Shown here: positions 21,752 through 31,217 of the stretch, piece after piece
How the letters are laid out: each line of letters starts with the position of its first letter
Numbering within the stretch: the stretch's first letter is position 1
Virus record (IMG/VR): IMGVR_UViG_2698536549_000026
Origin: a virus
Taxonomy: Duplodnaviria > Heunggongvirae > Uroviricota > Caudoviricetes
Reading direction: 5' to 3' (one strand)
Length of the DNA stretch: 31,217 bases
Translations under genes and position numbers: made by a program
The notes under the pieces: generated by a model
What the model was told of the DNA's origin: nothing
What the model saw: the letters and a program-made list of their open reading frames with translations, nothing else
The model's database searches: none

Positions 21752-22078
21752 TTAACGGAATGCAGCGCCGTAGATAAACAGAATTCGCTTCATGATTTCG
21801 CTGCGCTTGCAGGCTTCGATGACTGATTTTTCCTGCTGCTGTTCAGCCCGTTGCGCCAGTTCCTGTCGTTCCTTTTCCGTTGGCTTCCGGTAATGCGTTA
21901 TCTTGTCCGTGTACCCGTCCACAACCAGCAACCCTTCCCGTACCATTTTTCCGGCGGCCTGATTAATGACGGTTCTTTTCACGCCCAGTTTTTCTACCAG
22001 TTCTGGGGCGCTGAAACGTGCGTGCGTTTCCAGGTAGCGTAAAATGATTTCCTTTCCGGTCATTCCTGGGGTCTTCAT
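21752..22078 (-). CDS. small winged-helix-like DNA-binding protein, last gene of the early operon
   Basis: ORF track gives 21752..22147. ATG at 22078 has AGGAG upstream and an ATGA overlap with the preceding gene, giving 108 aa. Segment KEIILRYLETHARFSAPELVEKLGVKRTVINQAAGKMVREGLLVV looks like a winged HTH. Confidence 0.5.
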   Translation of the reverse strand: MKTPGMTGKEIILRYLETHARFSAPELVEKLGVKRTVINQAAGKMVREGLLVVDGYTDKITHYRKPTEKERQELAQRAEQQQEKSVIEACKRSEIMKRILFIYGAAFR

Positions 22079-22245
22079 TTGGCGGCTCCTTCGTTGTTCC
22101 GGCGTTCCCGGAGTTCGGTCAGTGCTGCCAGTAAATTCTCCCACCATGTTTCTTCCACGACCGGGTTTTGTCGTGAAAGCAGCTGCTGCGCCGACTCAAT
22201 CATTTTCGTAAGCTCTCTGTCGCTGATCCTCCTGGTGCTGTTCAT
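22075..22245 (-). CDS. small hypothetical protein (about 57 aa)
   Basis: ORF track gives 22075..22284. In-frame ATG at 22245 has AAGGAG 7 nt upstream. Charged, helical-looking. No recognisable family. Confidence 0.4.
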   Translation of the reverse strand: MNSTRRISDRELTKMIESAQQLLSRQNPVVEETWWENLLAALTELRERRNNEGAAK

Positions 22246-28675: not shown

Positions 28676-28906
28676 TTATGCCCAGTTGTCTTTTCTTATT
28701 ACTGTTTCATTCTGAAATCCTGTCTGCTCCATTGCATTTTTTAAGGACTCTTCTGTTTCAAATGTCACAACGATGCAATGGGTCGGGTAATGGAAATACA
28801 AATCGTTGCCAGCCCGAACAATGGCATCTAAGTTCTGATTACAGATTATTACTGAAGCGTCGTCGCTTATTTTTATTCTTTGTCTGATTTCCGTGTGTTT
28901 AATCAT
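28676..28906 (-). CDS. hypothetical small early protein (position of P2 orf78)
   Basis: 76-aa ORF immediately downstream of the cox-like gene, AT-rich. Confidence 0.45.
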   Translation of the reverse strand: MIKHTEIRQRIKISDDASVIICNQNLDAIVRAGNDLYFHYPTHCIVVTFETEESLKNAMEQTGFQNETVIRKDNWA

Positions 28907-28936
28907 CTTGCCCCTCCAATGATTGCCAGTTCTATA

Positions 28937-29362
28937 TCACGCAGCTTTTTTACTGATGCGTTTATTCCGTGAACCAGCTGCTGGCTTAAATAAAAAAAGT
29001 CGGTTTTCCCATTCGTGCCATTCTTGCGGTGCGTTTTCAGTGAGTCGATCGCAGGCTTCATCCCACGCTTTCCGGTTGATGTAGAGTTCGGCGTTTCCGC
29101 CAGGCTTGAGAGGGTCCGCCATGTACACAGCGGGTAATTTCCCTGCTTTTGCCATGCTCACGATGGCGTCAACGGTCTTGCCGATATACATCGCAAACCC
29201 TTCTTTTGACAGGAGATGAGAAGGGTTTTGTGAAAGCCTGATTTCCTGGCGTTCAGGGGCTTTGCGCCCGGTCTTTTGGTGTGCGGTTTCTGGCGCATCT
29301 GTCAACTGATCGCACTGTGTTTCGGCAGGCGATTCAGGCGCGTTTTGAGTGACTTCTTGCAT
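28937..29362 (-). CDS. cox: Cox-like excisionase / early transcriptional regulator
   Basis: ORF track gives 28937..29401. ATG at 29362 has GGAGG 8 nt upstream, giving about 141 aa. Segment FAMYIGKTVDAIVSMAKAGKLPAVYMADPLKPGGNAELYINRKAWDEA resembles P2 Cox (FAKLIGKSTGAVRRMIDKGKLPVIDMTDP...). First gene of the early operon, divergent from the repressor. Confidence 0.6.
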   Translation of the reverse strand: MQEVTQNAPESPAETQCDQLTDAPETAHQKTGRKAPERQEIRLSQNPSHLLSKEGFAMYIGKTVDAIVSMAKAGKLPAVYMADPLKPGGNAELYINRKAWDEACDRLTENAPQEWHEWENRLFLFKPAAGSRNKRISKKAA

Positions 29363-29477
29363 CTGGTATCCTCCGTTATTGGTGCTATTTCTATCTGGCA
29401 CTAGTTGGAACCACTTAGAACATTTCTTTTTATGTTCATATGTGGTATTAATCTACACATATGTAGGAGTTTGTCAA
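29363..29477. promoter_or_regulatory. immunity switch region between divergent cox-like and repressor genes (promoters/operators)
   Basis: 115-bp gap. Contains repeated CACTAG/CACTTAG elements (29399-29418) and palindrome CATATGTG-N11-CACATATG (29437-29463) centred on TATTAAT. Confidence 0.55.
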
Positions 29478-29744
29478 ATGGACATTCCTCAAAAAATTCG
29501 CGTCATGCGTAAATCTGAAGATCTCACTCAACGGGAGTTCGCTGATATGATTGGAATTTCTTACTCTGCTCTGACCAGTTATGAGTATGGTCGTAACCTT
29601 CCTGGTCTTGAGATCACTATCAAGCTTTTTAAGCACCCGAGATTTTCTAAATACCGAGACTGGTTTTTGTTCGATGAGGTCGAACCAAAGGCCGGACAGG
29701 TGGTGCCGGCTCTCGCACACATTGGGCAAAGCGAAGCTGAATAG
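29478..29744 (+). CDS. C-type immunity repressor paralogue, C-terminally truncated (88 aa)
   Basis: ORF track gives 29349..29744. ATG at 29478 has AGGAG upstream. MDIPQKIRVMRKSEDLTQREFADMIGISYSALTSYEYGRNLP...FSKYRDWFLFDEVEPKAGQVVPALAHIGQSEAE-stop. C-terminal 35 residues nearly identical to the downstream repressor, N-terminal HTH half divergent. Confidence 0.75.
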   Translation: MDIPQKIRVMRKSEDLTQREFADMIGISYSALTSYEYGRNLPGLEITIKLFKHPRFSKYRDWFLFDEVEPKAGQVVPALAHIGQSEAE

Positions 29745-29855
29745 TCCATCTGATACCCTCCGTTATTGGTGCTATTTCTATTAGCACTAGTTAGAGCCGC
29801 CTAGATTGTCTCTGGGTGTGTTTATTGATGCATAAACTAAGAGAGTTAACTTACT
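29745..29855. repeat. duplicated copy of the cox-proximal promoter/operator/RBS segment, between the two repressor genes
   Basis: 29748-29808 (CATCTGATACCCTCCGTTATTGGTGCTATTTCTATTAGCACTAGTTAGAGCCGCCTAG) is a near-copy of 29359-29420 (CATCTGGTATCCTCCGTTATTGGTGCTATTTCTATCTGGCACTAGTTGGAACCACTTAG). Confidence 0.7.
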
Positions 29856-30155
29856 ATGTCAACTAACGTAGGTGAAAAAATTAGAATCATGCGTAAGTCT
29901 GAAATGCTTACACAAGAAAAAATGGCTGAAATTACAGGGCTCACGGTAGCGGCCCTGCGTCAATATGAGCAGGGGAGAAATGAGCCAAATCTTGAATCCA
30001 CAAAAAAGCTGCTCAAGTCTCCCGTCTTCCGTAAATACCGTGACTGGTTTTTGTTCGATGAGGTCGAACCAAAGGCCGGGCAGGTGGTACCGGCTCTCGC
30101 ACACATTGGGCAAAGCGAAGCGGAATCATCCCACTCCGGCAAGAAGACTGGTTAA
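29856..30155 (+). CDS. C: immunity repressor, P2 C family
   Basis: 99 aa, MSTNVGEKIRIMRKSEMLTQEKMAEITGLTVAALRQYEQGRNEP...PALAHIGQSEAESSHSGKKTG. Closely parallels P2 C along its whole length (MSNTISEKIVLMRKSEYLSRQQLADLTG...PALAHFGQNETTSPHSGQKTG). Confidence 0.85.
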   Translation: MSTNVGEKIRIMRKSEMLTQEKMAEITGLTVAALRQYEQGRNEPNLESTKKLLKSPVFRKYRDWFLFDEVEPKAGQVVPALAHIGQSEAESSHSGKKTG

Positions 30156-30221
30156 CGGTCCATCTGGCCTTTATTTCTCAAAATTGTGATCAAGATGATG
30201 TTTTCATTGGGGGGCTTCCTT

Positions 30222-31217
30222 ATGTCGATTAAGAAGCTCGCTGATGGCAAATACTGTGTGGACGTGCGGCCTGCTGGATCTGAAGGAAGAAGATTTCGGC
30301 GGCGATTTCCTACCCGTGGTGAAGCGGCGATGTATGAACGCCATGTTCTGACGCATTATCACGATAAGGACTGGGTCGAAAAACCTATTGAACGTAAAGC
30401 GTTAAGCGATCTTCTGGAACTGTGGTGGGTGTACCACGGTAAGAATCATCGTTATGGCGCGATGAATCGGGTCAGAATTGAAGCGGTTCTTCGTGATATG
30501 CAAGAGCTTGGTATTAACAGAAGTGACCACTTAACCCGAAAAAATATTATCAGATATCGCCTTGAATTAATGAATCGCGGAATTAAGCAGTCAACGGTAA
30601 ATCGTTATTGTGCAATGATGAGCGGTTTCTTTGAAAAGCTGATTGATGTTGAAGAGTTTGTGGGTGATAACCCGTTTCACGAGATACGCAAGCTAACAAT
30701 TAATCAGCCGGAAATGGCTTATCTTGCACATGATGATATTCCCAGGCTAACCGCACTTTTATCTGGCGATAATCTTAAGGCTGTATTGTTAAGCTTGGCT
30801 ACAGGCGGGCGCTGGGGTGAAGTTGCCAATATTAAAGGTGAACACATAATTGGTGGGAAGGTTATTTTCATGGAGACAAAGAATGGATCGCGGCGGGTTA
30901 TTCCTATAGCTAAAGATCTTGAATCTCTGATTAAAGTCAAAGCGACGGGAAGATTAATGAACCCCAGTTATGCGATAGTCAGAAGTGCAATAAGGACTGT
31001 GCGGCCTGATTTACCAGTCGGTCAGTCTGTGCATGTTTTACGGCACACATTCGCAACTCATTTCATGATTAATGGAGGGAACATTATTACCCTTCAGCGT
31101 ATTTTAGGGCACAGCACAATTCAGCAGACAATGACCTATGCGCACTTTGCACCTGATTATCTCCAGGACGCGGTAAGGTTCAATCCGGTTGCGGAGTTGT
31201 CCAGATTTTGCCCATAA
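30222..31217 (+). CDS. int: tyrosine integrase (P2 Int family)
   Basis: ORF track gives 30186..31217 from a GTG. ATG at 30222 gives about 331 aa. C-terminal catalytic region HVLRHTFATHFMINGGNIITLQRILGHSTIQQTMTYAHFAP with conserved R...HxxR...Y. Stop at 31215-31217, so attP/attR lies just beyond the window. Confidence 0.9.
   Translation: MSIKKLADGKYCVDVRPAGSEGRRFRRRFPTRGEAAMYERHVLTHYHDKDWVEKPIERKALSDLLELWWVYHGKNHRYGAMNRVRIEAVLRDMQELGINRSDHLTRKNIIRYRLELMNRGIKQSTVNRYCAMMSGFFEKLIDVEEFVGDNPFHEIRKLTINQPEMAYLAHDDIPRLTALLSGDNLKAVLLSLATGGRWGEVANIKGEHIIGGKVIFMETKNGSRRVIPIAKDLESLIKVKATGRLMNPSYAIVRSAIRTVRPDLPVGQSVHVLRHTFATHFMINGGNIITLQRILGHSTIQQTMTYAHFAPDYLQDAVRFNPVAELSRFCP

Follow-up and report, generated by a model that had tools for sequence, protein, structure and literature searches.

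Stacked heteroimmune repressor cassettes in P2-like prophages of Escherichia coli and their probable role in multi-immunity

Between a single cox gene and a single integrase gene, the P2-like prophage analysed here carries two C-type repressor genes in tandem, which share their C-terminal portion and differ in their DNA-binding halves. We consider it likely that this region consists of two complete heteroimmune P2-type cassettes, stacked in an otherwise normal P2-like prophage and giving that prophage multi-immunity, a function that we infer from the cassette anatomy and distribution described below. Superinfection immunity is usually described as one repressor with one specificity per prophage, and P2-like prophages are very common in E. 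coli and its relatives. The stacking of switch cores appears to be new, and the C/Cox switch itself is already known.

The window, i.e. the whole stretch of 31,217 nucleotides, has the regulatory region of the prophage at its right end. It holds a full P2-type gene set (baseplate, fibre, tape measure, sheath, capsid, scaffold, terminase, portal and replication nickase), the structural genes of which show at most ~71% nucleotide identity to any isolated phage. The genes around the switch are ordered cox (-), C1 (+), C2 (+) and int (+), with C2 as the last gene before int, and the same layout is found in single-copy relatives (Table 1). The stop codon of int is the end of the window, and int lies in the lysogenic operon, 3' of the repressor array. 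Cox is the excisionase and lytic repressor, encoded by the first gene of the early operon and common to all cassettes; its DNA-binding core (residues 46-126) is invariant across single-copy and array prophages of types A, B and C (defined below), so that one Cox presumably acts on every cassette.

Table 1. Coordinates of the features of the stacked regulatory region in the window
Feature	Position	Strand	Basis or remark
cox (141 aa)	28937-29362	-	Pfam Phage_Cox 1e-27; phrog_1831
Left boundary of cassette 1: cox start codon (CAT on +), ribosome-binding site (CCTCC) and leader	29360-29394		Conserved in all relatives
Candidate operator B: 8-bp direct repeats TACATATG (29458-29465) and CACATATG (29437-29444), 21 bp apart	29437-29465	-	Flank the Pe(B) -10
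Candidate Pe(B), TTGACA-16 nt-TAGATT, towards cox; -35 abuts the C1 start codon	29450-29477	-	Promoter scan
C1, type B repressor, 88 aa	29478-29744	+	HTH_3, phrog_147, P2 C structure match
56-codon ORF antisense to C1, starting at the retained cox ribosome-binding site and ATG	29579-29749	-	
Array junction: C1 TAG (29742-29744), TC, CAT of the retained cox start (29747-29749)	29742-29749		
Left boundary of cassette 2: second cox start, ribosome-binding site and leader, with no cox gene behind	29747-29781		33/35 match
Predicted Pe(A), TTGACA-17-TAGTTT, and candidate operator A	29833-29866	-	Predicted; -10 hexamer weak
C2, type A repressor, full length, 99 aa	29856-30155	+	HTH_3, phrog_147, P2 C structure match
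int, tyrosine integrase	30222-31217	+	Pfam Int_N and Phage_integrase; phrog_1

An earlier note on this DNA had described two C-type repressors with different DNA-binding halves, and the protein comparisons bear this out. Both belong to phrog_147, the P2 C family (8e-33 and 2e-28), and both align without gaps to the P2 C structures 2L49/2XCJ, C2 over residues 1-99 to 1-99 (phmmer E = 1.6e-26) and C1 with E = 4.4e-22, at 45% identity to P2 C. A domain search of the two proteins returned HTH-type domains only, and no RecA-dependent self-cleavage domain was found. C1 and C2 are identical at 28 of 55 residues in the HTH half and at 32 of 33 across residues 58-90, and their recognition helices have four of nine residues in common. 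We name the cassette types after their repressors, with A for C2, B for C1 and C for a third HTH half that is joined to the same C-terminal half (e.g. in strain JNEC-KY202); helix 5 and the C-terminal half are identical among the three E. coli types.

The tandem repeat between cox and int has a unit of ~385 bp (period 378-387 bp). Self-comparison of the region confirmed the near-identical C-terminal ends reported earlier, with 88 of 92 nucleotides matching between 29650-29741 and 30034-30125, whereas the 180 nt on their 5' side show only 47-63% nucleotide identity per 30-nt window, against 93-96% in the flanks. The 35 nt of the cox start region are repeated with 33 identical positions, and repeats of such length and identity are far beyond chance. 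The earlier note had taken this copied cox-proximal segment to contain the operator; the copy is real, but it holds the cox start, ribosome-binding site and leader and not the C operators, since the candidate C operators and Pe adjoin each C start codon and are cassette-specific. The cox start region is probably also the upstream part of Pc. Likewise, the upstream repressor does end early and at the repeat junction, as claimed, but it lacks 9 residues at its C-terminus rather than 11, the remaining two by which C1 is shorter than C2 being N-terminal. In the regional alignment, a cassette begins with the cox start and leader as its conserved left boundary, continues with ~290 nt of variable core, and closes with a conserved right boundary formed by the last ~95 nt kept of C, the encoded residues of which are invariant among types A, B and C. 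The variable core comprises the intergenic control region, with a predicted Pc, Pe and the cassette's own candidate direct-repeat operators, together with the HTH half of C.

A promoter scan of 28800-30400 returned Pe(B) as the sole promoter-like site, with 10 of 12 positions matched, and the same element is present, identical, in the single-copy type B prophage L002. Candidate operator B, here predicted from sequence, has the architecture of the P2 operator, in which 8-bp repeats 22 bp apart flank the Pe -10 (PMC1904268). In the predicted Pe(A) the -35 TTGACA (29857-29862) overlaps the C2 start codon and the -10 TAGTTT lies at 29834-29839; the associated candidate operator A comprises the direct repeats TTAGTTGA and TTAGTTTA (8 bp, 26 bp apart), and phage P88 and the single-copy type A prophage L001 carry these elements too. 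For cassette C we predict a Pe of the form TTGACA-17-AATAAT and a candidate operator in which ATAATTTTT appears twice (9 bp, 19 bp apart). Each cassette type has a perfect TTGACA -35 that overlaps or abuts the C start codon, and the candidate operator repeats differ between cassettes, at a spacing of 19-26 bp; published operators in the P2 family are direct repeats of 8-10 bp at Pe, 22, 26 or 34 bp apart (PMC1904268). A scan of the minus strand between Pe(A) and cox found no terminator-like site. A possible terminator on the plus strand (29798-29818) was rejected, being weak and also present in single-copy relatives, in a scan where the total of sites did not rise above the shuffled expectation.

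Both repressors occur singly elsewhere, at 100% protein identity. Over its 99 aa, C2 is identical to the only C protein of the prophage in E. coli O22:H8 strain 154, and its exact sequence is found on 819 contigs; the 88 aa of C1 all match P0047, a single-copy C of 97 aa that is present on 686 contigs and runs on past the end of C1 with SSHSGKKTG. These counterparts indicate that the window joins two pre-existing heteroimmune cassettes, B and A, through recombination. The tandem layout with its regular period and near-identical C-terminal parts is also what a true tandem duplication of one module would leave, had the DNA-binding halves then diverged, and the earlier note had spoken of a duplicated module. 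We regard this as very improbable, because each copy has a fully identical single-copy counterpart, because the identities of cores and flanks given above form an allele mosaic and not a pattern of divergence in place, and because one and the same junction joins different pairs of cassettes. Three further 88-aa proteins (P0124, P0092 and P0023), considered as additional truncated types, proved to be alternative start-codon calls of full-length genes.

The exact 88-aa C1 was found on 240 contigs (243 blocks) from NCBI, ENA, JGI and Logan, and other 88-aa type B variants on ~36 more, giving ~275 contigs in total for B-88; in all ten loci fetched, another C gene lies 3' of C1. Five cassette orders were seen: B-A in the window, six of the ten fetched loci and a metagenome contig (L016), B-C in L012, C-A in L017, B-A-C in L007, and B-C-A in L009, L013, L022 and L027. 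All non-terminal copies end in ...SEAE at 88 or 90 aa, exactly 9 residues short at the C-terminus; the final copy is of full length. Truncated C-90 is present on 31 contigs and truncated A-90 on 9, the frequency of arrays that do not begin with B being drawn from cluster counts and the one IMG/VR locus L017. The backbones beside the arrays differ in gene content, so the arrays are not one clone. Single copies of B-97 are on >1,500 contigs versus ~275 for B-88, and E. coli arrays are a recurrent minority form. The suggestion of a one-off recombination intermediate is contradicted by the junction being carried on ~240 contigs, and by two- and three-cassette arrays in different orders.

One C gene each was found in 132 of 132 sequenced phage records with a C-type gene, none of them with an array, in keeping with the view in the earlier note that P2-type phages normally have one; a two-repressor layout is therefore not the standard of a well-characterised family. 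When 5,426 complete E. coli genomes were searched with the junction and with the whole region, single-copy relatives only and no array were returned; neither these genomes nor the 132 phages thus offer an example of an array phage that is viable as a virion. An exact junction scan of species-representative genomes gave 0 matches, which is uninformative with one genome per species, and a degenerate junction scan of JGI metagenome contigs also gave 0 matches. The literature searched contains no description of tandem C genes, although its coverage was incomplete and an earlier mention is possible; the main comparative paper on P2-like regulatory regions leaves them unmentioned (PMC3448106).

Every E. 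coli array junction contains GAATAGT(C/T)CATCTGATACCCTCC regardless of the cassettes joined, and the junctions share GAA-TAG-T(C/T)-CAT-CTGATACCCTCC. This one junction sequence across the E. coli arrays points to a single ancestral joining event. The 9-mer GTCCATCTG occurs at the junction (29744) and again at 30158, 3 nt past the C2 stop, the cox start reads TTGCATCTGG, and the spacer after C and the cox start share a 7-nt CATCTG(G/A) microhomology that GTCCATCTG fits. These similarities suggest a join through the CATCTG microhomology followed by a ~30-nt deletion, a route that needs this extra deletion and a point change. In the scheme that we propose, one ancestral illegitimate event would have joined the 3' end of a C gene to the cox start codon, after which ordinary and unequal homologous recombination in the conserved boundaries, among heteroimmune relatives, would have swapped, added and removed cassettes; homologous and unequal recombination of this kind is enough for every cassette order seen. 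A site-specific origin of the junction, as in an integron-like array with a dedicated recombinase, was considered and not adopted, since the junctions of independent arrays lie at different positions; no inverted repeat was found in the region, and homologous exchange within the conserved flanks suffices to account for the arrays, so we do not assign them to an integron-like family. The antisense ORF that starts at the retained cox start has 56-57 codons at 21 of 21 junctions examined, with all three cassette types, and is probably a by-product of the junction.

Arrays are not confined to E. coli. Two samples of 80 C-gene loci each, one from IMG/VR and one from species-representative genomes, contained arrays at four and two loci, respectively, and besides the E. 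coli arrays there are four further multi-copy loci with different junctions. The complete chromosome of Serratia symbiotica (CP050855.1) carries three full-length C genes with a cox copy before each, in units of ~725 bp; both internal cox copies break off near codon 105 and continue into the antisense of the C gene upstream of them. In a second assembly there are two cassettes. A published prophage-activation study of S. symbiotica concerns another prophage, at 1.32 Mb, and not the array carrier (PMC12505973). Xenorhabdus santafensis has two C genes in units of ~490 bp, with a junction that keeps ~17 cox codons, and in Symbiopectobacterium a 1,236-bp unit includes the whole of cox and two early genes at 99% identity, with different C genes. 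A further lineage (L048) has a C gene, a frameshifted C gene and another C gene. In every array the HTH half differs between the copies (25-68% identity), but some pairs from Xenorhabdus and Symbiopectobacterium have recognition helices with no more than one or two differing positions, which makes different specificity less certain there. A seeming two-copy locus in Erwinia tracheiphila (L187) was discarded as one frameshifted gene. Judged from their different junctions, arrays appear to have arisen independently at least four or five times.

The arrays of E. coli were all met in draft assemblies or on metagenome contigs and none lies in a finished genome of that species, as might be expected if the arrays were assembly artefacts, produced by collapse or chimerism of two co-resident heteroimmune prophages. 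We give this next to no credence: the junction GAATAGTCCATCTGATACCC, with its new stop codon and distinct leader variant, is absent from single-copy genomes, so that mis-joined reads cannot make it, and it recurs on ~240 contigs, the longest of 375 kb, drawn from four independent sources. Moreover, reads exceed the length of the repeats (35 nt, and ~95 nt with 4 mismatches), and the analogous three-cassette array of S. symbiotica lies in a complete chromosome.

The truncation that the junction imposes on upstream repressors has a close counterpart in P2, where the last 14 residues of C are disordered and a stop codon removing exactly the last 9 left the repressor fully functional in vivo (Massad et al. 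2010, PMC2995052). In the alignment, the truncation in the arrays coincides with this point, directly after P2 residue 90; unlike the engineered deletion, it is natural, made by the array junction and present in proteins 45% identical. No frameshifts or internal stops were seen in the truncated E. coli copies, B-88 has 9 distinct DNA alleles, and variant codons in truncated copies are synonymous in 24 cases and non-synonymous in 4, a ratio biased by the fact that part of the B-88 set consists of exact protein matches. Helix 5 and the C-terminal half being identical, A, B and C repressors might form heterodimers; selection against heterodimers has been argued (Massad et al., PMC2995052).

The main rival to multi-immunity is that an array is a neutral by-product or scar of cassette exchange, in which a single repressor does the work, or both are redundant or cross-react, and which will be lost by recombination between the repeats. 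The rarity of arrays relative to single copies agrees with this, as do their absence from isolated phages and complete E. coli genomes and the decayed middle copy of L048, which shows that arrays are not always kept intact; in addition, a similar stretch, GCACTAGTTRGARCC, is present in both the A and B intergenic regions, so some cross-recognition is possible. We nevertheless hold a scar to be unlikely. A dead C1 would leave the early operon unrepressed unless C2 cross-reacts, and cross-reaction is at odds with recognition helices that are alike at only four of nine residues and with candidate operators that differ. The truncation matches the P2 C deletion proven functional, no decay is seen across ~275 contigs and 9 DNA alleles, and the independently arisen arrays all retain intact, differing C genes. 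Stacking that recurs in hundreds of E. coli genomes, and that arose separately elsewhere, makes the multi-immunity of one prophage probable.

As we picture the circuit of the window, Pc(B) would transcribe C1, C2 and int, and Pc(A) would transcribe C2 and int. C1 would shut Pe(B), the promoter driving cox and the early operon, and C2 would shut Pe(A) and so keep its transcription from running leftwards through C1 into cox. Because the promoter adjoining cox is that of the upstream cassette, with its truncated repressor, lysogeny would be stable only with a working C1, and because Pe(A) is aimed through C1 at cox with no terminator-like site between, C2 would be needed too. The lysogen would then be immune to type A and type B relatives, and in three-cassette arrays also to type C, and the single common Cox would be able to flip all cassettes. 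Judging by the sequences, dual immunity, which the earlier note had raised, is the most plausible consequence of the array.

It is possible, though we advance it with considerable reserve, that stacking goes further and constitutes an arms-race device with OR-gate logic, in which escape and multi-immunity together would favour added cassettes, convergently in several Enterobacterales lineages. Any unrepressed Pe in the array would read through to the single cox and early operon, so an array phage would be repressed only where the cell supplies all of its repressor types, and it would grow on lysogens of each single-type relative and of shorter arrays. The array lysogen, conversely, would be immune to single-type and shorter-array phages. 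Selection would add cassettes, and unequal recombination in the conserved flanks would expand, shrink and reshuffle the stack in the manner of a small cassette array. A single antirepressor might, moreover, be able to lift all repressors at once, given their identical C-terminal halves.

Multi-immunity through stacked cassettes builds on a well-described switch. In P2, WPhi and P2 Hy dis, convergent Pe and Pc promoters are controlled by Cox and by a C repressor of ~99 aa that binds direct repeats. The prophages described here share with these phages the homologous C and Phage_Cox proteins, the int-C-cox order, the Pe at the C start codon, and candidate direct-repeat operators (at 19-26 bp spacing) of a specificity that presumably varies from phage to phage, alongside a conserved C-terminal half. 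They depart from the single switch of these phages in placing two, and elsewhere three, switch cores between one cox and one int, and in having upstream repressors that are naturally 9 residues shorter. An immunity module that is exchanged naturally by recombination within conserved flanks is also seen in P2 Hy dis and among the immunity classes of other P2-like coliphages, with heteroimmune relatives that are nearly identical in the rest of the genome; in all of these, one module replaces another, whereas here modules are added serially and vary in number and order.

Several immunities in one cell are known from the heteroimmune arrays of CTXphi and RS1 in Vibrio cholerae, in which different rstR alleles lie in tandem. 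There too a variable module of repressor plus operator is set in a conserved backbone, but whole prophage or satellite genomes are repeated, whereas here a ~385-bp cassette is repeated inside one phage genome, so that a single virion could carry the combined immunity. Tandem duplications within the P2 genome, arising by illegitimate recombination, were reportedly obtained in the laboratory by Chattoraj and Inman in the 1970s; unlike those duplications, which were identical and selected, the cassettes described here are heterotypic, natural and widespread.

If this reading is true, a prophage can collect immunities, and one lysogenisation would spread protection against several relatives. It would also predict escape from single-type immunity, which would be a factor in the competition among P2-like prophages. 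With ~385 bp per cassette, natural variants in number and order, and P2 C and Cox for reference, the arrays form a tractable system, and their natural, small and apparently orthogonal repressors on a common scaffold may be useful for circuit design.

At every array junction, in the window as in the relatives' loci with E. coli-type arrays (L006-L029), the cox ribosome-binding site and ATG have been retained, and each time they head an open reading frame antisense to the upstream C gene. This junction frame spans 56-57 codons, a length similar across the three cassette types, and probably arose as a side effect of the join; it could be relevant where transcription reads through from the internal early promoter. 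In the Serratia symbiotica array (L188; CP050855.1, 62038-68337), the internal copies of cox retain approximately 105 cox codons before continuing antisense to the C gene upstream of them, and truncated forms of Cox might be expressed from them.

Features discussed in the text, with coordinates in the window or in the locus named
Feature	Location	Strand	Remarks
ORF antisense to upstream C gene	window 29579-29749	-	headed by retained cox ribosome-binding site and ATG
Internal cox copies, Serratia array	L188 2471-2887, 3215-3619	-	open for 134-138 codons
Middle C gene of three-copy array	L048 2942-3175		frameshifted
ORF, 76 aa	window 28676-28906	-	slot directly downstream of cox
ORF, 131 aa	window 21752-22147	-	matches Ren-like exclusion protein family (phrog_142, 1e-28) and MarR-type regulators

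Decay of array members is possible, because in a non-E. coli-type array with three C copies (L048) the middle copy is frameshifted after approximately residue 60, its C-terminal coding sequence still being recognizable in a different frame. A type B repressor present in single copy (P0131, 108 aa, 5.2 Mb contig) is likewise frameshifted, after residue 42, in a genome that otherwise looks complete; immunity has probably been inactivated in the prophage that carries it.

Across the structural and replication genes of the window (1-25000), the best nucleotide identity to isolated phages was only ~71-76% (Salmonella SI7/SW5 and others), and the switch region is P88-like; the lineage is therefore scarce among cultured phages. 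In the right flanks of L006-L027 the prophage adjoins ppa; in some carriers the chpS-chpB toxin-antitoxin genes separate int from ppa and in others they do not, so the carriers differ either in where the prophage is inserted or in host background.

We also observed that small-gene content immediately downstream of cox differs among prophages that are otherwise very alike. This slot in the window was compared with L006 (1545-2429) and with two loci carrying B-C-A arrays, L009 (1748-2378) and L022 (351-1166). Other loci hold an ORF of 181 aa together with one of 72 or 99 aa, or pair an opposite-strand ORF of 145 aa with one of 64 aa, or have an empty slot; a search for a family match to the window's 76-aa ORF returned none. 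The slot looks like a variable cargo site, possibly for defence or accessory genes. Elsewhere in the same prophage, the 131-aa ORF may provide a second, unrelated superinfection-exclusion function.
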